From assembly GCA_951406725.2 (NCBI GenBank), contig OX597814.1, positions 38,564,001 through 38,628,000 on the forward strand: 64,000 bases of DNA, read 5' to 3'. Positions 1 to 13,700 of this stretch are shown piece after piece (within the stretch, counting starts at the first letter, position 1; each line of letters begins with the position of its first letter). The stretch is from Octopus vulgaris (Eukaryota). Below the pieces are notes generated by a model. That model saw only the letters and a program-made list of their open reading frames with translations. It did no database searches and had not been told where the DNA came from. The translations under genes and the position numbers were made by a program.

Positions 1-1106
1 GTTATTTTACTATTTTACAAAATAGTAGAAAAACATGTCCAAACCTTAGACATTTTGTTGCTTTTTGTTGTCTCATAGTATACGTGTGACAGTATGTCAC
101 TGCAGTACATTATCATTGATTGTAGAATCATTCGTTTTCTAAATGTTATTAAAAACATTTTCGTCCATCGGTATCAGATATTGAATTGGTTTAATTAAAG
201 AATAAAACTGGCACAAAAGAATTCTTAACTCGCAAGATGATAAACAGACATAAAATCTAAAGTGTCTGGCAAGTCTAGTATCTTCAATAAATAATCTGCA
301 GCAGACTGATAAAATATTATCGATGTCATCTTTAAATAGGGTTAAGAATAAAGAGCATGGAAATCATTCCTTTAATTAAAAGTGTTGACCTTCGTTGATA
401 CAAGAGTGTATACGTGCTAGAGTTAGACATTAATGGATAATATGTACCGTATCGTCATTTATAAGTACAAACAGACACACACACATACACCCACCCACAC
501 ACAAACACAGGCACACATATGCTTCAGGATTAAATAATATTTCACGTATTGGCACAGATACATCAATAAATAATGGCTAAATGGGGAAAAAATCATTATA
601 TTTATAAGTACAGTATAATGATGGCTACATATATCTATCAATTTCTCTCTCTCTCTATCTCGCTCTCTCTCTCTCTCTGTCTATATGCATGTATGTATGT
701 ATGAATGTATGTATGCGTGCATATATATATGTGTATGCATAGCTATTTTCATCAGGTCTTTAATGTTCATCACGTCTTTAATGTTTAGAATCACAGAAAT
801 ACGAAGCTTAATGGTGTCACTGTACCGTAACTCCAATGCTGCTATACATTAACAACACTGCAAATAGAAAAGATTTCTGTTACTAAGAGCAGCACAAAAT
901 ATGAACATTTATATCACCAATCGCGTTAACTGATGACTCCTCTTCAAAATGGATGATTGTTGAATTAACTTGTTTTCGTTTCTTTATGCAGAATTTATTC
1001 ATACGTAAAATTATGATAAAAATGCAGTCATTATCCAATAGGGTTCACGTAGGATTTTCAAATAAGAAACGGAACAACGAGAATTCTACTTATTTCTTGC
1101 CTAGTA

Positions 1107-1485
1107 TGACCAGAAGAGAATTAGTGCATTCAAGCTTTGGTGTTGGAGAAGACTTTTACGGGATTCCATGGACAGCGATGCTCACCAATGGAGAAGTTCT
1201 TAAGCAGATCAGGCCGAAAATGTCGCTAGAAGCTAGGATCACTAAGCATAGATTGGCATATTTCGGTCATATGCGGAGAAAATCCCTGGAGAAGGACATC
1301 ATGCTCGGAATGATCAGTGGCAAGAGAAGAAGAGGCCGACCAAGAACCCGCAGGCTTGACACCATCAAGACTGACAAGGGAATGGACATAGCCAATCTGA
1401 AAGAAGCGGCCCAGGATAGAACTGACTGGAGGACACTGATCCAACGAGTGACGGAGAGTCGACTTCGACTGAGCAGAAAGATAGA
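1107..1485 (+). mobile_element. RTE/BovB-type LINE 3' fragment (5'-truncated, frameshifted)
   Basis: Translation across two frames gives ..WCWRRLL.IPWTA..TNGEVL..SLEARITKHRLAYFGH..SLEKDIMLGMISGKRRRGRPRTRRLD..LKEAAQDRTDWR, the typical RTE ORF C-terminus, followed by a short AGAT tail. Confidence 0.85.
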
Positions 1486-1787
1486 TATCACAGCACTCAA
1501 GGCTAGGCTTGGACAATTATTTCTTTGTATAAATCGGACCTAGATATATAGTCTGTTGAATACCGTAGGAGCTGCGGTATACCTCTTCACTACAATCATT
1601 CAGTTCCACATAATTTTCAAAGGCTAACTCAGTGCATATATGTGACACTACTTATTTCATGTATCTTAAAACACTGCTTGTGAGATCATTTATGTTTAAA
1701 ATCATCGATTCTACGAAAGAAGAAATTTGCCGTTTTCGCATATTTACTGTTTCAAATAGCGAGTACAGAATTACTCATGAAAAGTCT

Positions 1788-1798
1788 GTTGTTGTTGT

Positions 1799-1830
<32 letters not shown>

Positions 1831-1868
1831 TTGATGTTGCTGTTGTAGTTGTTGTTGTTGTTGTTGTT
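1788..1868 (+). repeat. (GTT/GCT)n trinucleotide microsatellite
   Basis: Direct reading. Confidence 0.9.
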
Positions 1869-3811
1869 GGAAGTGGGGCTGCTTCGACTGTTAGAGAGTT
1901 GGGTGGTTTGTTCATGGCATTATTAGCAACCAGAATGTGATGTTTAGGAGACTCGGAAACATAACTTGAGGGTTTTGTAATTTTATCCCAACACGTATAA
2001 ATAGAAAATCACCAGCCTATTTGAAAGAACTTGAGTACCCGTTTTCATCTCTTATATGCATCACACGAATTCACATTTTCATAATCGAATCAAGTTACAT
2101 AATTCATACCCACAAACTATTTAGTAAAAAAAGGCACAAACGTGCCTTATGATTTGCTTTATACACTCTATTTCAAGACTCAACTTCCTTTTATAAGGAT
2201 TCTGAGGATATGCCTTTTAAATTGATAATCAACTCCATTAGCATATTATTTAGTCTCAGTATTTTGGTGACATTAAACTCGTGGCTAAATTGTCTTTGCA
2301 AACTGACGATAAGACACGTATAACTCCGTTATATATACCGCAAGTTACATCAAACATCCCATTAACAATCCAATAAATCCCAGGGTTAGTTAAATTTCAT
2401 AGGATATCTGTAAGTTATTGGGGGCCGTAATGGCTGTTGAATACATCAATCATTAATTAAGAGACGCTGCTGGGTTAGAGAATGTTAAATTGAAGGTACC
2501 AACTGCCTTGTTTTGTTAGAAAATTAGCTCGTACCACAACTATTTCTACCACAAGAACGGTGAAACGAAAGACAATTCTCTATCTTTTGCTTGTAGAGTC
2601 TCTTAGTTAAAAAGCAAATATCAATAGGGTTATATTTCAGTAATACAATCTGTTTAGAAACAGGAAATGTTAGACTCATTATGTGTTCGTCCAAACAGAT
2701 TGAATAGAATAAGAGTGTTACGAGGAACCTATGTTATTAACTCATAAATAAAGCATAACATTTGGAATATATTATACTGTATTAGTTGCCAACTTGGGTT
2801 GTGTGTAAAACGCCTTGAAATTTGCTTCACAAATTTTGAAGCCTCAGCAAAATATGCAGTGACTAACGAAACAACTATGCAATAAAGTAACCGACATCTG
2901 TATTTAAAAAATATAGACTGGTCAAGCAGGATGTTTCAGTCAGTAATCTAGGGGTAATATCATACCAACACATACCTACGATTCAACACTAAAAATTTAT
3001 TAACATTCGCTTGTATATCAGTGAAGCAACGCTGACTGACACTTAAGCCTAGGCATCACCAGTACGCAATTTTTCAGTCTCCAAAACGAAAGAAAAAGAA
3101 ACAGGCATAAGAGTTAGATCCGTGACAGGATTTAACAGCAGGTATATATAATTGATAAACGACTCGCCCACAATTCCTGGGTGCAGTGCAAATGAAGTAC
3201 AACTATATGTTCTTCTTTTCGCCGTTAGTATAAAAATATATTAGATAAATATGAATTTAATAAACACATATTAACGAAACCATGGTAACAGTTTTAATTC
3301 CATACGCACGTTCTCCAGCCTGAAGTTAAATAATAAAGCAAATCCACGGTTTGATCTGACTTGTTAATCGTGTACTGTATAGCCAGTTAAACTTTAAACT
3401 AATCTGTAGGAAAACACTCTGTATCTGAACAGTTTGAGGTGAGAATATTAACGTTATCAGTGGCTTTAATGTAACTCAAAACTAATCGATAGTCCACTAT
3501 AATTGCTGCGTGTGAAACAAGTGTTTCATAATCGGGGTCATTATTTCTTAGCGAGGCTAAAAATATTATTATAAATCAGAATATTGTTCATATGTTTAAA
3601 GCAAAGGGAGCAATAAAAAACACATGCACGCAGCTACACAACATCGTTTATATATATATATATATATACGACAGTAAAAATGAACACTGGGATTAGTATA
3701 TCTGGAAGTGATTTTAAATATTTTTACGGTACCAGCCTCTGTATATTTATCCCTATACATGCTCTGCCTCTCTCTTTCTCTCTCTCTTTCTCTCTCTCTA
3801 TCTCTCTCTCT

Positions 3812-4841
<1,030 letters not shown>

Positions 4842-4843
4842 GT

Positions 4844-5149
4844 ACGAGGCAGATGGACAAACCATCAACACAAAGAAAAGGGATGGACCACGCACCACCT
4901 GCCCCAAAGCGGAGATACGCAGATGTTGTGCGCGCCACAAACAGCCAACATGATGTTGTCGAAAGAGCAGCTGCTGAGCAACAATCTTTTTTGTGCATGG
5001 CACAAAAGATTGTACAGCAGCTGACCTGGCTTCATCAAACCCAAGCCCGCAGGTGGTACTACCCACTATATACCAGACCACCACAGCAAACAGACACAGG
5101 ATGGACACCGCCGGCAACAACGTACACCTCACCTCGATACTCCTACTGA
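4844..5149 (+). pseudogene. ORF1 C-terminal remnant of LINE A
   Basis: Open frame (..EQQSFLCMAQKIVQQL..) overlapping the ORF2 start; resembles the -1-frame extension of LINE B ORF1 (..FLAMLNMAKEIHKNI..). Confidence 0.6.
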
Positions 5150-8097
5150 ACATCAGAGGACTGCAAACACTCAGTAACAGGACAAAGACCCCGTTCCTGA
5201 GAGACTTTGTTGCATGCAATCAAGCCTTATGCATAGCACTTACAGAAACGCACCTGAAACCGGACATAGCAGATGCGGAGTTACACATACCACAGTATGC
5301 TGTACTACGGACCGACAGGAAAGAAAGGAGTCATGGAGGTGTTGCTATGTACATCCGTGAGGACCTCACACCCCAGGTCCTCTTGTCATACTCAAACTCG
5401 GTGTGTGACACACTAATTGTACATATTAGGCAACTTGATGTAGTTGTGTGTGCTACATATCGCCCTCCAGATGCCCCAAGCCATGTGGGCAAGTTCGAAG
5501 ACTGCCTTATAAAAATAGAAGAAATTCTAACCACATTAGAACAACACATAGGTGTGCTTCTTATGGGAGACTTCAATCTGCCCAATGTCAGATGGCCCGA
5601 GGGCCTTTCTCTCCCAGGAATGACAAGATGTGAACGAGGACAGGCGAGGTCCCTCCTGAACCTCATCAACACCCTGTACATGGAGCAGGTAATACTCCAA
5701 CCAACCAGGGCAGGTAACACACTGGATCTCTGCTTCACAAATGACATGGATCTCATCCATAATGTGAAAGTGACACCGACACTACTCTCGGATCACAACA
5801 TGATAGAGCTGACCATGTACGGGCCAAAAGAGAGCACGGACATGCAGCCTACAAGAAACCCTCAAAATCTTTCCAGCTTGAACTACCATAAGGCAAACTG
5901 GAAACAAATTGAGAAAGAGATCCTCAAACAAAACTGGCCTGAATGTCTCTCCTCGCCAGACATCGACGTGAAACTTCAACAATTCATGTCTGTAATGCAA
6001 GCCATATGCTACAAATGTGTCCCAGAGAGAAAGGCCACTGTACACAAGAACAAAATCCCCAGAGAGAGGAAAATTTTAATGAGACGGCGTACGAAATTTT
6101 CAAATCGCCTAAACAAACAGATTGAAAGCAGTGAAAAGTCCCGCCTAAAAATAAAACTGTTGGAAATCGAAAAATGTCTGCAACTCTCCCATGAAAAAGA
6201 AAGAGCAGACAAAGAAGCCTGGGCTATAGAAAACATAAAATCTAACCCCAGAGCTTTCTACAGGTATGCCAAAGAAACAGCTACAGTGCACTGTAGAATA
6301 GGGCCACTCCTTGAAAAGGATGGCACACTTACAGGAAAACCAATGAGGGTAAGTGAAATACTGAATGGGCAATTCAAGAGTGTTTTCACTCCACCCCTTG
6401 GGCATCTCCAAATCACCAATCCAACTGACTTTTTTACCACTGCAGATATAAAATCAGAGGCGGCGACGATAGATTACATCGATATAAAGGAAGACGATGT
6501 AACCAAGGCTATAGATGAAATGAAAACAGACTCAGCTACTGGCCCCGATGGATTCCCGGCAATCCTCCTAAAAGCATGTGAGAGAGTCCTAGCAAGACCA
6601 CTGCAGTTCCTCTTTCAGAGCTTCCTTGCAGCTGGCAAACTTCCAGGAAAACTGAAGGAAGGTAAAATATGCCCCATTCATAAAGGAGGTAGCAGAGCGG
6701 AAGCCAAGAACTATAGACCTATCTCTCTGACCTCACACATCAGCAAGGTCATGGAACGAATAGTCAGAAGGAAGCTGATCACCTTCCTTGAAGAGAATGA
6801 CTTGCTGCCCGACACCCAACATGGTTTCCGACCAGGGAGAAGCTGTTTAACTCAGCTCCTACAACACTATGACTGGGTGCTGAAACGGCTGCTCAACCAC
6901 TCAAATGTGGAAGTGATATATCTCGACTTTGCAAAGGCCTTTGATAAAGTCGATCATGGAATGATATGTCACAAACTGCGTGATCTCAACATAGTTGGAA
7001 AACTGGGAGAATGGCTTCATGACTTTCTGAAGGATAGAAGTCAGGTGGTAGTAGCCAATGGGGCCACCTCCATTAACACACAAATAGTGAGCGGTGTTCC
7101 ACAGGGCACTGTTCTGGGACCACTACTGTTCATAATGGCCCTCTCAGACATGCCCTCAGCCACGCAGAGAGCCACGATCACAAGTTATGCAGATGATACA
7201 AAAGTCTCACAGGCAATACAGAACCCTGAGGACACTAAACACCTGCAATGTGAGCTGGACGAAATATACAAGTGGGCTGAAAAGAATAGCATGCAGTTCA
7301 ATGCTGGAAAGTTTCAAGCTTTATACTATCAGCATGCAAAACTGAATGCAATACCCAATGAATACACTGGACCCGGAGGGATTGCAATCCCAGAGGCACA
7401 ATCAGTGCGTGACCTGGGTATTCACATGAGAGATGACGCGACCTTTCATGTACATGTTGCTAAACTGACAATGAAATGTAGACGGCTGGCTGGATGGATT
7501 CTTAGAACCTTTAGAACAAGAGAACAAGAAACCATGATGGTCCTCTGGAAGACACTTGTCCTAAGCCACTTTGACTATTGCTCTCAGCTATGGTCACCAT
7601 CCAGTGTCAAGTTGATCACAGAACTTGAGGCGATCCAACGAAGCTACACAAAGAAGATAGCCTCTATGCAGAATGTAAGCTACTGGGAAAGACTCAAGAG
7701 ATTAAAATTATATTCCCTGGAGCGTAGGCGGGAAAGATATGCCATAATATACATCTGGAAGATCCTGGAGGGAAGTGTCCTGAACTTTGGCATCGAGAGT
7801 TACGCAAATGCCAGAACTGGGCGCCACTGCGTGGTGCCTAGGACACCAAACCTGCCATCAAGATGTAGGACAAGATTCTGTGATAGCCTGGGCTTCCGAG
7901 GCCCACATCTCTTCAATATCCTCCCGAAGAACCTGAGAGACCTGCATGGGGTGGATACAGATGTCTTTAAAATGAAGCTGGATCTCTTCCTGTCAGGTGT
8001 CCCAGATGAACCAACTTCACGGCAGGAGGGGCAGATGAGGGCAGCTGCATCGAACTCTCTCATGCACCAAATAGCAGTTGCTAGAAAGCATTCGTGA
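4993..8097 (+). CDS. ORF2: APE endonuclease + reverse transcriptase (frame open from 4978; first ATG 5101)
   Basis: EN motifs NIRGL, TETHL, YRPP, GDFN, LDL, SDH; RT motifs [36 protein letters not shown]; C-terminal [10 protein letters not shown]. Confidence 0.95.
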   Translation: MHGTKDCTAADLASSNPSPQVVLPTIYQTTTANRHRMDTAGNNVHLTSILLLNIRGLQTLSNRTKTPFLRDFVACNQALCIALTETHLKPDIADAELHIPQYAVLRTDRKERSHGGVAMYIREDLTPQVLLSYSNSVCDTLIVHIRQLDVVVCATYRPPDAPSHVGKFEDCLIKIEEILTTLEQHIGVLLMGDFNLPNVRWPEGLSLPGMTRCERGQARSLLNLINTLYMEQVILQPTRAGNTLDLCFTNDMDLIHNVKVTPTLLSDHNMIELTMYGPKESTDMQPTRNPQNLSSLNYHKANWKQIEKEILKQNWPECLSSPDIDVKLQQFMSVMQAICYKCVPERKATVHKNKIPRERKILMRRRTKFSNRLNKQIESSEKSRLKIKLLEIEKCLQLSHEKERADKEAWAIENIKSNPRAFYRYAKETATVHCRIGPLLEKDGTLTGKPMRVSEILNGQFKSVFTPPLGHLQITNPTDFFTTADIKSEAATIDYIDIKEDDVTKAIDEMKTDSATGPDGFPAILLKACERVLARPLQFLFQSFLAAGKLPGKLKEGKICPIHKGGSRAEAKNYRPISLTSHISKVMERIVRRKLITFLEENDLLPDTQHGFRPGRSCLTQLLQHYDWVLKRLLNHSNVEVIYLDFAKAFDKVDHGMICHKLRDLNIVGKLGEWLHDFLKDRSQVVVANGATSINTQIVSGVPQGTVLGPLLFIMALSDMPSATQRATITSYADDTKVSQAIQNPEDTKHLQCELDEIYKWAEKNSMQFNAGKFQALYYQHAKLNAIPNEYTGPGGIAIPEAQSVRDLGIHMRDDATFHVHVAKLTMKCRRLAGWILRTFRTREQETMMVLWKTLVLSHFDYCSQLWSPSSVKLITELEAIQRSYTKKIASMQNVSYWERLKRLKLYSLERRRERYAIIYIWKILEGSVLNFGIESYANARTGRHCVVPRTPNLPSRCRTRFCDSLGFRGPHLFNILPKNLRDLHGVDTDVFKMKLDLFLSGVPDEPTSRQEGQMRAAASNSLMHQIAVARKHS

Positions 8098-8186: not shown

Positions 8187-9341
<1,155 letters not shown>

Positions 9342-9662
9342 GATTAACTGTTGAACTGGACGGACGTCTATTTGTTTCTCTCCCGAGTCAGTAGCAAGCT
9401 ACACAGCTTCAAAACTAACTGACCTTAAATATATATATATTTGTAACCACGTGTTTGCCTACAAACCCGTAAGTACGTTTTCATTTAACTACAAATTGTT
9501 ATATACACCTGTTTTTCTTTTAATATCCTCAAACAACCAAATAATCAAAAACTCACACCCTTAAGAGAGAACATTTATATATATATACACTTCTTTAACT
9601 CCCAAGAAAGAATATATATATTTTCAAAAATCAAAAGGAAAACAAACAAAAGAAAAACAAAC

Positions 9663-10784
9663 ATGACTAACTTGCAGGCCTGCAACAGACGAAATTGGTC
9701 TGATAACGAAATTGATGTTTTAATAAACACATGGCTCTCTCTTTCCCAAACAGAAAATCTAAATGTCTTGTGTTTGAATGAGATTGCCGAAAAAACATCA
9801 CAAGTGGTCAACACACGATCCGTCAAACAGATTCGTAGCAAGTTGAAACATATCGAAGTATCTTTCAAACTGATAAGAGGCCATTATGAAAAGCTTCTAC
9901 ATATTTTCACAGTTCAAGAACAACAACAGCTAGAAAATCAGCAGCCACAACAACAACAACAACAGAATGAGCCACTCCTGGTTCCCAACACAATGGCTGA
10001 CCCTGACATCGGTCAGGCACAACAACAACAACAACAGCCACAGCAACAAGAACAACAACAGCCACTCCTCAACTCTAGCTTACTAGACGATTCACTAAAT
10101 GCCAGTATCTTTTCACCGCTCTCACAGCAACCACCACAATTATCATCATCATCATCACCACCGCTGCCACCATCGTCTTCTATCACCAAAAATACCAACA
10201 GAAAACCAAATAAGAAACCACTGCCCTCTTCCCCCACATCACCACCTCAATACTACTGCAGTAACAAAAACTTAAAGAAACATAGGAAGCAGAATGCGCC
10301 CCCCACGGCACAAACAAGAAATCCCCAAATATGCCGCTATTCACTGCGCCAGAGACTCTGCACAAATAGTGACTGCATCTTCACGCATCTACCCGGCACT
10401 AGACGCACTACTGGCCAAGGCCAAAGCACGCATCCCACAATAACATCAACACCACCAAATAGTAAATCGAAATTCAAAACACACACAACTCGGAGTCCCA
10501 AAATCTGCCGGTATTCCCAACGTGAGAGAACATGTCTACTGAGTGACTGTCCCTTCACTCATCTTCCAGGGACCCGACGCACAAACAGAAACGGGGCCTC
10601 AAGCCAACACACAAACCTGAATAACAATAAAAATAGAAACACACCATGCTGCAGTAATGCTGGTCCAGTCTTTTCAGGAAGACACAAAAACAACAACAAC
10701 AAAAGTGGAAACTACAACCCTATCCAACAGTGCAACCACACCTCCAGCCAAAAACTGCTCCCTAAGCAGGAAAATTTTTTTTAG
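9663..10784 (+). CDS. LINE B ORF1: Myb/SANT-like N-terminus, Q/S/P-rich linker, two CCCH-type zinc fingers
   Basis: NWSDNEIDVLINTW..EIAEK..RSVKQIRSKLKHI; two C-x8-C-x4-C-x3-H-LPGTRR repeats starting near 10332 and 10506. Confidence 0.8.
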   Translation: MTNLQACNRRNWSDNEIDVLINTWLSLSQTENLNVLCLNEIAEKTSQVVNTRSVKQIRSKLKHIEVSFKLIRGHYEKLLHIFTVQEQQQLENQQPQQQQQQNEPLLVPNTMADPDIGQAQQQQQQPQQQEQQQPLLNSSLLDDSLNASIFSPLSQQPPQLSSSSSPPLPPSSSITKNTNRKPNKKPLPSSPTSPPQYYCSNKNLKKHRKQNAPPTAQTRNPQICRYSLRQRLCTNSDCIFTHLPGTRRTTGQGQSTHPTITSTPPNSKSKFKTHTTRSPKICRYSQRERTCLLSDCPFTHLPGTRRTNRNGASSQHTNLNNNKNRNTPCCSNAGPVFSGRHKNNNNKSGNYNPIQQCNHTSSQKLLPKQENFF

Positions 10785-13700
10785 CCATGTTGAACATGGC
10801 AAAAGAGATACACAAAAACATTCTAGCCATCACTCAACACCATCCTATGCTATTACCCCAGTGCACCAATTCCCCACATTGCTGCCACTAACACACACAA
10901 AAAATCCAAGCCCCCTGCAACAGTCAAAACCAGCCACTACACTAACCTCCACATTCCTACTCAATGCACAAGGTGTCAGCCCTTCCATCAATGCACAAAA
11001 ATGGAAGGTCCAATTCATTGAAGACTGGGTTGGTAACCATTCACACCACATCCCTTTCTTCATTCTCACTGAGACCCACCTTGACAACTCCCACTTGGAA
11101 GCCGAAGTGAGAGTGAAGAATTTCACAACCATCCGCGCGGATCGTATCGGCAGGAGGAAGGGTGGAACTGCCATTTTCCTGCATGATTCATTTACGGCAG
11201 ATGGAAATAGTATATTCTCCAACGGCTACTGTGAATCAGTCACCGTGCACAACAAAGCCAATGATCTGACAGTAATTGGGCTCTATAGGCCGCCCCAAAC
11301 ACCCATACTGTGCTTTAAAGAATGCCTCAACAGCATTAAGTGCTTTATTCAACAGTGCCATTCTAGCAACATACTCATGATGGGAGACTTCAATCTACCC
11401 TGTGTTGACTGGACTACAAACTGTTTGAAACCAAGCACTCCCGCCTCAACCGCTGACAAAGAAGCAGCAGAGTCACTTTTCGACTTTACGAATGAGTTTT
11501 TCTTGTCCCAACTTGTCCTTGCACCAACAAGACATCAGAACATTTTGGACCTAGTGTTTAGTAACCACACTAACACTATACATAACGTTACAGTGGAAAA
11601 AACCCTTCTTTCAGACCATGACATGGTTCTCTGTAACATGAAATTCCACCAGCCGAAAGCTAATCCTAGTGACCTTCCTCCAGCCCACCCATTTGACAAC
11701 ATGGATCTCCATAAAGCCAACTGGGATGCAATCAGGAACGAGCTATCAAATGTTGACTGGTCCTTTACACATACACACATCTCCACCAACCATAAAACAT
11801 CTTGGCAGATCTTTGTAGACACCGTCACAGACATATGTGCAAAACACTCCCCACCAAGACCTGTGAACAAAAAGTGCAGAATCCCCCAAAACAGAAAAAC
11901 CATTATCAGAAAAATAAAAAGAACAAACAAAAAAATTAACAAACTAAAGTACTGCCAACAGCAACACACACATTCGACGGCTATCGCACTGCTTGAATCC
12001 AAAAAATATAACCTCCAACAATGCATGAAGTCCCTCATCAATAACCAAAGATCAGCTGAGGAGAAGTGGGCCATTGAAAAAATCAAACTCAACCCCAAAG
12101 TGTTCTTTTCATTTGCGAGGAAACGCAGGGTCACTGTCTCCACTGTAGGCCCTCTAATTGACGAAACTGGCACTCTCCAAGATAATGCCAAATCCATGGC
12201 CGAGATACTGCAGAAACAATACTGCTCTGTTTTCAGCAATCCTGATATGGCCGATCTGGGCTGTATCAGTGATGTCAACCCCCAACACACTATATCGGAC
12301 ATAACGTTTAGTGCCCCTGATGTCTTAGCGGCGATAAACGAAATAAAACACAATTCAGCAGTAGGCCCCGATAGGTTCCCTGCTTGTGTCCTGAAGGTGT
12401 GTCGACACCAACTTGCATCTCCCCTTGCTAATCTGTGGAGAAACTCACTGGATGCTGGCTATATTCCAAAAAACCTTCTGTCCCAGTCTGTTGTCCCAGT
12501 TTTCAAAAAGGGAAACAAGTCCCTTGCAGTGAATTACCGTCCGATCTCACTCACCTCTCATATCATCAAGGTATTTGAGAGGGTGGTGAGATCTCAAATA
12601 ACCCAATTTCTGGAAAGCAACAGACGGCTGATCTCCAACCAACATGGGTTCCGTAATGGAAGGGACTGCCTAACGCAGCTCCTGCATCACTTTGAGGACA
12701 TTTTGAGAGCTTTGGGAGAGGGCTCCAACACCGATGTCATCTACCTTGATTTCAGTAAGGCCTTCGACAGGGTCGATCACAAGATCCTATTGAAAAAACT
12801 ATCCAACATTGGTGTCTCTGGAAAGTTACTGAAATGGATTAAGTGTTTCCTGACAGACAGATCTCAACATGTTGTAGTTGAAGGGGTAAAATCAAGCCCA
12901 GCCAAAGTCAGTAGTGGCGTTCCGCAAGGCACTGTGCTGGGCCCACTTCTTTTCATCATTTACATTAATGACATTAATGACATCATCAAGCACAGCAACA
13001 TAAAAATCTTTGCAGATGACTCCAAGCTACAGAAGGTCATAAATGAGGCGAGTGACCGGACATGCCTTCAGTCAGATCTACTGGCTGTTATCCAATGGGC
13101 AGAAAAAAACAATATGCTGCTGAACGAGGATAAATTTGAGCTAATCCACTTTGGAAAAGAGGATGCCCTGAAACTCCCATACTCCCTTCCTTCAGGTGAA
13201 ACTCTCGCGGCGTCCAACAACATCAGAGACTTGGGAGTAATTGTGGACAACAACGTAAGCTGGGCCACTCATATAAACACCAAAGTTGACATGGCCCGCA
13301 GAATGTGTTCCTGGATTCTCAGAACTTTCCAGTCGAGAGATATCCACACCATTATCCTTCTCTTCTCCACTTTTGCCCGACCCCACCTTGAATACTGTTG
13401 TCCACTGTGGTCTCCCCACACAATACAAGGTATCATAAAAGTCGAAGCACCTCAAAGGGCAATCACAAAAAAGATAGATGGCATGACAGGCCTCGACTAT
13501 TGGGGTCGACTAGAAAAGCTAAAACTCTATTCTCTCCAACGTCGTCGTGAGCGCTACATCATCTGCATGATGTGGAAAATATTCCATCAGCATTGCCCAA
13601 ATGATGTTGGCATCACCTTTAAGGTACATCCAAGGCTTGGGCCCCGTGCCATCCGCCCAAAACAAAAATCGCACTCTCATCTCATAACAACAATACGGCA

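Follow-up and report, generated by a model that had tools for sequence, protein, structure and literature searches.

The translation of the second open reading frame (ORF2) of long interspersed nuclear elements (LINEs) is described as an open question in the available part of PMC3894237, and the cases that have been worked out are of reinitiation. The accessible sections of three reviews (PMC2881922, PMC3894237 and PMC3708506) report reinitiation for L1 of humans and SART1 of Bombyx, and treat the initiation of ORF2 as an open question. Both elements use a bicistronic RNA, and their ORF2 output depends on ORF1 translation (PMC2881922, in the section available). A 2016 frameshifting review mentions HeT-A, TART and L1 and, in the text accessible, no CR1-type case. 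The Dictyostelium elements TRE5-A and TRE3-A, which are APE-type LINEs without long terminal repeats (non-LTR), require a -1 frameshift for ORF2 according to a figure legend in a review (PMC5911963, in part). In HIV-1 gag-pol, a nucleic-acid-binding structural first ORF overlaps the reverse transcriptase (RT)-bearing ORF at -1, and the shift occurs on the heptamer U UUU UUA (PMC5009743 and PMC3458567, in the parts available). Here a 64,000-nucleotide stretch of Octopus vulgaris DNA (assembly GCA_951406725.2, contig OX597814.1, positions 38,564,001 to 38,628,000 of the forward strand; hereafter the window) was analyzed. It contains a full-length LINE of family B. In this family, ribosomes probably reach ORF2 by a -1 frameshift, and the ORF1-ORF2 fusion that would result has a predicted size of about 1,410 amino acids (aa).

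Family B shares with HIV-1 the heptamer, its phase and the -1 overlap between a putatively nucleic-acid-binding, structural type of first ORF and an RT-bearing one, and differs from it in being a non-LTR element with an APE endonuclease, in having no conserved stem-loop at a spacing of about 7 nucleotides (nt), and in having no protease in ORF2 by Pfam. TRE5-A and TRE3-A are amoebal and target tRNA genes, and the likeness to them lies in the -1 shift stated for these elements. Like L1 and SART1, the octopus element would be translated from a bicistronic RNA; L1 has a spacer between its ORFs and SART1 a UAAUG stop-start, whereas families of the octopus type have overlaps of 35-132 codons that start with a slippery heptamer. 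ORF2 with APE endonuclease and RT is also the arrangement of the CR1 group (Jockey superfamily), and the available text of PMC4120745 gives PHD, zinc-finger and esterase types of ORF1 for CR1/L2. Among the loci studied here (L numbers), L222 was found to carry PHD domains, and L245 and L310, from a sister lineage, gave GDSL esterase matches in ORF1. The ORF2 tree described below holds no named references and does not fix a clade name.

The features of the family B copy in the window, all on the plus strand, were as follows.

9339..13985, plus strand: full-length LINE of family B (APE endonuclease and RT), with (AT)n tracts on both sides and short tail repeats at its end.
9663..10784, plus strand: ORF1 of the window copy, 373 aa, ended early by a TAG that a one-base deletion brings into frame.
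10657..10659, plus strand: ATG that a one-base deletion places in the ORF2 frame, and that is in this frame in no other copies; in the majority copy L040 it starts just a 42-codon ORF.
10763..10765, plus strand: TAA shutting the ORF2 frame; in majority copies it stands four codons 5' of the heptamer, and a shift could take place no further 5' than this codon.
10775..10783, plus strand: U-run, 8 T and A in the window copy; TTC+T6+A in majority copies, which gives U UUU UUA in the -1 slip phase.
10775..10808, plus strand: hairpin with its core at 10784-10800 and the U-run in its 5' arm; families B and A have it in strong form, but it is not a general feature.
10783..13896, plus strand: ORF2, with an S/T/P-rich linker, the endonuclease from the LLN motif at ~10957-10965, and RT; first ATG at 11377.
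10785..10891, plus strand: ORF1 C-terminal tail ..LAMLNMAKEIHK..CCH*, in use in majority copies, where ORF1 has 409 aa and is overlapped by ORF2.

In the window copy, 8 T at 10775-10782 are followed by a TAG (10782-10784) that closes ORF1 (..PKQENFF*), as the initial annotation had read, and ORF2 lies at +1 relative to ORF1, not at -1, in this mutant. The earlier reading that the ATG at 10657 is in the ORF2 frame, and that no Met follows between the run and mid-endonuclease, was confirmed in this copy. ORF2 scored above the Pfam cut-offs for PF14529, PF03372 and PF00078, and with an ORF1 upstream and short tail repeats the element is an APE-type LINE. The Myb/SANT-like and CCCH zinc-finger matches in ORF1 were weak, under the Pfam cut-offs.

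When the octopus genome was searched with a pattern in which both junction flanks were fixed, 358 family B copies were found. The junction was TTC+T6 in 193/358 of them and 8 T in just 5/358. The first 81 of the copies listed (80 fetched copies and the copy of the window) were studied as a detailed set and comprised 46 with the majority junction, 13 lacking one T, seven lacking two, six lacking three, three with 8 T and six others; the majority junction together with two intact ORFs was present in 9/81. In majority copies, ORF1 has 409 aa and ends ..ENSFLAMLNMAKEIHK..CCH* (..ENSFLAMLNM..), ORF2 is at -1, and U UUU UUA stands in the slip phase; the first Met of the ORF2 frame is 200 codons past the heptamer, inside the endonuclease. 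The main contig carried the majority form in 8/8 public runs compared; these are contigs that can only be guessed to derive from RNA, and the assembly itself may have been built from some of the runs. The proposal that the consensus has 6 or 9 T was supported, with the small difference that the extra base is a C and not a ninth T. The ..FLAM.. ORF1 restored with it, the U UUU UUA heptamer and the -1 position of ORF2 all agree with the majority form (..SFLAM..).

These findings show that the window copy is a one-base-deletion mutant of the majority site, in which ORF1 is truncated and ORF2 is put at +1, and it is probably a dead-end copy. Its U8 may let that copy leak; frame loss on U8 is noted in the available part of PMC3458567. 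A +1 shifty stop or a -2 slip on U8 was rejected as the mechanism of the family, 8 T being present in just 5/358 copies, and the ATG at 10657 was likewise rejected as the ORF2 start. An 8-T consensus with a conserved ATG at 10657 was not found. Such a length had been hinted at by the top 30 BLAST matches to the window (25 with C+5T, four with 8 T and one with C+7T), a bias toward copies of the same length which the flank pattern search corrected.

The junction was then compared with those of related families. Relatives were taken from scans of metagenome and metagenome-assembled genome (MAG) contigs (the best 80 of 447 and the best 80 of 460 matches); 101/160 of those retained extend to the endonuclease N-terminus, and a scan of viral contigs gave one fragment. 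An alignment of the endonuclease alone was too variable for use as a scan query. The 460 LINE-like matches in prokaryotic genome bins are most simply host-animal DNA contaminating the MAGs. In a FastTree phylogeny of 99 ORF2 proteins, computed from 724 columns and rooted at the midpoint, with ORF2s of outside loci below 780 aa left out, a core clade with support of 1.0 holds families A-D, L222, L223, L225, L227, L320 and 17 database proteins, the last without DNA and hence without junction data. L224, whose ORF2 is broken, is not in the tree and was assigned to the core by 47% identity. The relatives present in the window are given below.

4978-8097, plus strand: ORF2 of LINE A, with an in-frame ATG 38 codons downstream.
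4987..4993, plus strand: heptamer at the junction of LINE A, U UUU UUG, in the -1 phase and within a hairpin.
16923..19058, plus strand: family D copy, 5'-truncated; junction-reaching copies elsewhere have A AAU UUU in the -1 phase.

The junction was readable in ten families, four from this genome and six from metagenome or MAG contigs, and in 10/10 of them ORF2 is at -1 and a canonical heptamer is present: U UUU UUA in seven, and U UUU UUG (family A), A AAU UUU (family D) and A AAA AAC in one each. The heptamer is retained, and does not vary synonymously, among these families. A stop in the ORF2 frame stands 1-7 codons 5' of the heptamer in 9/10 families and 21 codons 5' of it in family D, and six of the ten, family B included, have no AUG ahead of the endonuclease. 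In family C, U UUU UUA follows the ORF2-frame stop by one codon and was present in 31/33 matches (some loci counted twice). In family D, FL is replaced by NFV, yet A AAU UUU was found in 20/20 junction-bearing loci among the 30 fetched. The residue ahead of Phe-Leu is variable (Ser, Asn, Pro or His) and its codon always ends in U. The earlier likeness of family B to LINE A stood in both frames: the -1 frame FFLAMLNMAKEIHKNILAITQ resembles LINE A ORF1 SFLCMAQKIVQQL, and LINE A ORF2 reads IFFVHGTKD. The ORF1 frame is open to the first endonuclease motif in 9/10 families, with Q/P/M-rich tails of 35-132 aa. Two loci outside the core clade by ORF2, L319 (1296-1302) and L324 (994-1000), show this Phe-Leu junction (U UUU UUR) together with the probable helix that follows it, which suggests exchange of ORF1 and junction between lineages, or convergence.

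Controls were made on the heptamer and on the open frames. Read in the phase of the junction, 3,306 upstream ORF1 codons contained nine canonical heptamers, and U6 was not among them. The tripeptide xFL was coded as nnU UUU UUR in 8/8 cases at the junction compared to 2/37 xFL tripeptides in ORF2. For a given family, the probability that its amino acids are coded by a canonical heptamer by chance was 0.013-0.27. The junction is the sole T6 run of the coding region in five of the eight U6 families. When ORF1 was shuffled synonymously, the joint probability of an ORF2 frame open across the overlaps was about 1e-11; the ORF1 frame is open across the overlaps too (about 1e-7). These findings show that nucleotide conservation at the junction exceeds the need of the protein.

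A -1 frameshift is likely because the heptamer is in the -1 phase at the start of the overlap and no AUG precedes mid-endonuclease in family B. Most ribosomes would read through and make the 409-aa ORF1 protein. In a few percent of passages, tRNA-Phe and tRNA-Leu would slip in tandem on U UUU UUA, and the slipped ribosomes would pass through the S/T/P-rich linker into the endonuclease and RT; in the resulting fusion, 374 codons would come from ORF1 and 1,037 from ORF2. Bare U6A gives a -1 shift of 4-6% in reticulocyte lysate (PMC3458567, in the part available), a level that may suffice for a protein of which little is needed. Folding that covered stem-loops but not pseudoknots gave no downstream stimulator conserved among the families, and the low ORF2:ORF1 ratio may therefore be set by how slippery U6A is by itself. 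Taken together, the sequence comparisons support the interpretation of the initial annotation and indicate that the putative -1 frameshift signature of this LINE clade, seen through a mutant copy, is conserved and real.

The hairpin beside the U-run was examined as a candidate stimulator. The earlier claim that it extends onto the U-run was borne out, but the 1-nt loop first drawn cannot close, and the hairpin folds with a 7-bp stem and a 3-nt loop. The fold was -12.9 kcal/mol in the window copy and -16.0 kcal/mol in L040, where comparison with shuffled versions of the 33 nt downstream gave a z of -5.8. A hairpin containing the heptamer gave z of about -2.4 in family A and L224 and was weak or absent in the other families, so that the adjacent hairpin was rejected as a frameshift stimulator conserved across the ten families. 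An alternative stem that family B can form at spacer 5 has -8.6 kcal/mol and a z of about -2.3 to -2.8; it was set aside as unlikely to be essential because a C-G pair is lost in a subfamily of eight copies (reference position 1489). Pairing behind the heptamer with the 3' untranslated region (UTR) was examined as well.

13928..13939, plus strand: 3' UTR segment complementary to 10784-10795; 11/12 positions pair, one as G-U, with marginal significance.

The neighborhood p value of this pairing was 0.05 in family B and 0.09-0.57 in eight others; it was never the best site of the element, and tail lengths were chosen by eye.

Several observations weigh against frameshifting. The families share ancestry; the counts are not independent events, and the joint products overstate independence. 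The hairpin begins at spacer 0, without the usual spacer of 5-9 nt as already remarked in the initial annotation, and would presumably be melted inside the ribosome. No conserved stem-loop was found 5-9 nt downstream in the ten families (median z of -1.8 to +1.0 over spacers and lengths), and the best of nine z values for structure at this distance was below -2 in just 4/10. In run X9, one low-depth contig of ~88% identity, which also has indels, carries a C in place of the final U at the junction. The tree of family B copies described below is nearly star-like, which weakens the recurrence test made on it, especially within subfamilies. Finally, four of the ten families (A, C, L225 and L320) have an in-frame AUG ahead of the endonuclease, and in most families ORF1 stops within a few codons of the endonuclease start.

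The last two observations also suit the main rival, in which ORF2 translation begins near the ORF1 stop by termination-reinitiation, or by internal initiation that needs no AUG, in the manner of SART1 and L1, with the U-run kept for another reason. This is the mechanism reported for these two elements (PMC2881922 and PMC3894237, in the parts available). In the octopus-type families, the ORF1 stop falls mostly where the first endonuclease motif has its Leu-Asn codons, and a restart there would come too late to give the whole domain. A stop-start of the SART1 type, with the ORF1 stop overlapping an ORF2-frame AUG, was not found in the ORF1 stop contexts, and in families C and D the ATG after the ORF1 stop belongs to the ORF1 frame. 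Moreover, reinitiation leaves unexplained why the open stretch of the ORF2 frame reaches as far back as the heptamer and is shut just before it, and why heptamers of four different sequences stand in the exact phase. It is considered unlikely.

A smaller chance still is given to the explanation that the junction is conserved for the start of an ORF1 helix (Phe-Leu) together with codon habits, or for a role of the RNA unrelated to translation. As judged from sequence, FLxxM/L begins a probable amphipathic helix in 8/10 families. Against this explanation stand the per-family heptamer chance given the amino acids and the finding that the junction is the sole coding T6 run in five of the eight U6 families, although such a run is mutagenic.

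The frame might also be mended at the level of nucleic acid, either by polymerase slippage that adds a U or by two-base-deletion copies, which are in-frame fusions and would supply ORF2. The junction run is the most indel-prone site of the element: indels were found in 32/81 family B copies compared to 39/895 observations at the other twelve 6-7-base runs (p 7e-19), and the difference from the next-hottest run was also clear (p 7e-4). Two-base deletions are present in 7/81 family B copies, one of which, L065 (about 80-4723), has an intact ORF of 1,410 aa. In contrast, they have founded no subfamily in family B and were found in 0 of the first 100 matches listed in family A. Under cis preference, the RNA that made ORF2 is the RNA copied. 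Copies with an additional T would then be common, and their scarcity (1/81 in family B and one of the first 100 listed in family A) argues against polymerase slippage. Family D, moreover, has no T6 run. Mending of the frame in either way is accordingly held to be highly improbable. Natural in-frame fusion copies (L065, L052 and, in family C, L167 with an open frame of 1,439 codons) mimic the product predicted for frameshifting.

Junction variants were equally common in the youngest (15/31) and oldest (12/24) family B copies. On the copy tree, the 35 variant tips required 34 changes (33.5 on average after shuffling), and none of the subfamilies was fixed for a variant. Since variants recur and yet none is fixed in a subfamily, selection for the exact run length appears to act on the source elements. 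The indels are inferred to be made at insertion, probably by RT on the U6 next to the hairpin. A general homopolymer error of the assembly was rejected as their cause, other runs being far cleaner and families A and D nearly clean (in family A, which has 384 matches, a count by eye of the first 100 listed gave 91 with an intact U6). A sequencing artefact specific to the hairpin may contribute in family B, the public runs checked being contigs only. A second indel-prone run, an A6 in RT (window about 12469-12474), was altered in 12/80 copies, each independently.

The least probable alternative, that the U-run serves as the polypyrimidine tract and AG of a 3' splice acceptor yielding an ORF2 mRNA, agrees with an AG at most 3 nt after the run in 5/10 families, B included, but the next AG is 7-24 nt away in the other five, codon phase would be unnecessary, and no joint ending at this AG was found in the contigs of the eight public runs, whose derivation from RNA is a guess.

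Other features of the window were recorded. Directly behind the full-length copy, a 3' fragment of family B is joined in tandem (13989-14915). Copies of families A-D are very often located within long (AT)n tracts (window 4840, 9339 and 14915, and fetched loci), which suggests microsatellite targeting. A terminal 3' UTR hairpin (window 13943-13956; L418) covaries from G-C to A-U between families B and C, and a CAUGGCC-type motif is common to the 3' UTRs of A, B, C and D and of a minus-strand element; this shared hairpin and motif are a probable recognition signal for RT.

Outside the core clade, a long ORF overlaps ORF2 at -1 in 25 loci and at +1 in 11. A canonical heptamer in phase was found in 17/25 of the -1 loci compared to 2.9 expected; two of the 17, L310 and L311, are near-identical copies. 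These heptamers are often of the most shift-prone types (U UUA AAC, G GGA AAC and A AAA AAC). Several of the loci have U UUA AAC followed by an immediate stop, in elements with an esterase ORF1 (L245 and L310), and some A AAA AAC cases are weaker, being a Lys-Asn protein motif of A-rich sequence. In a sister CR1-like group (L229, L243, L264, L228 and L256), G GGA AAC or G GAA AAC occupies one homologous ORF1 position in the -1 phase, and another outer group (L234 and L317) has G GGG GAA.

In the literature searched, no description of a conserved slippery site in these LINEs was found; older and subscription papers lay outside its coverage, and earlier proposals may exist. The available parts of PMC1965478, PMC7175516, PMC13343379, PMC4120745, PMC1925062, PMC5006619 and PMC11203168 contain no statement of such a site, and the words "frameshift" and "overlap" are absent from PMC4120745 and PMC13343379.

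The chances are about even that, beyond this clade, a large part of the CR1-group LINEs ordinarily reaches ORF2 by -1 frameshifting, giving a Gag-Pol-like fusion through a bare slippery site that is retained though it breaks about 40% of family B progeny. A phase-exact, conserved slippery site makes it possible to test sharply and at low cost whether animal LINEs use a retrovirus-like route. Should this route be in use, ORF2 annotations that begin at the first Met would be too short for these families, and host factors acting on frameshifting could control the elements. The enzyme would then bear its own ORF1 RNA-binding part, which would provide a simple basis for cis preference and for assembly of the ribonucleoprotein.

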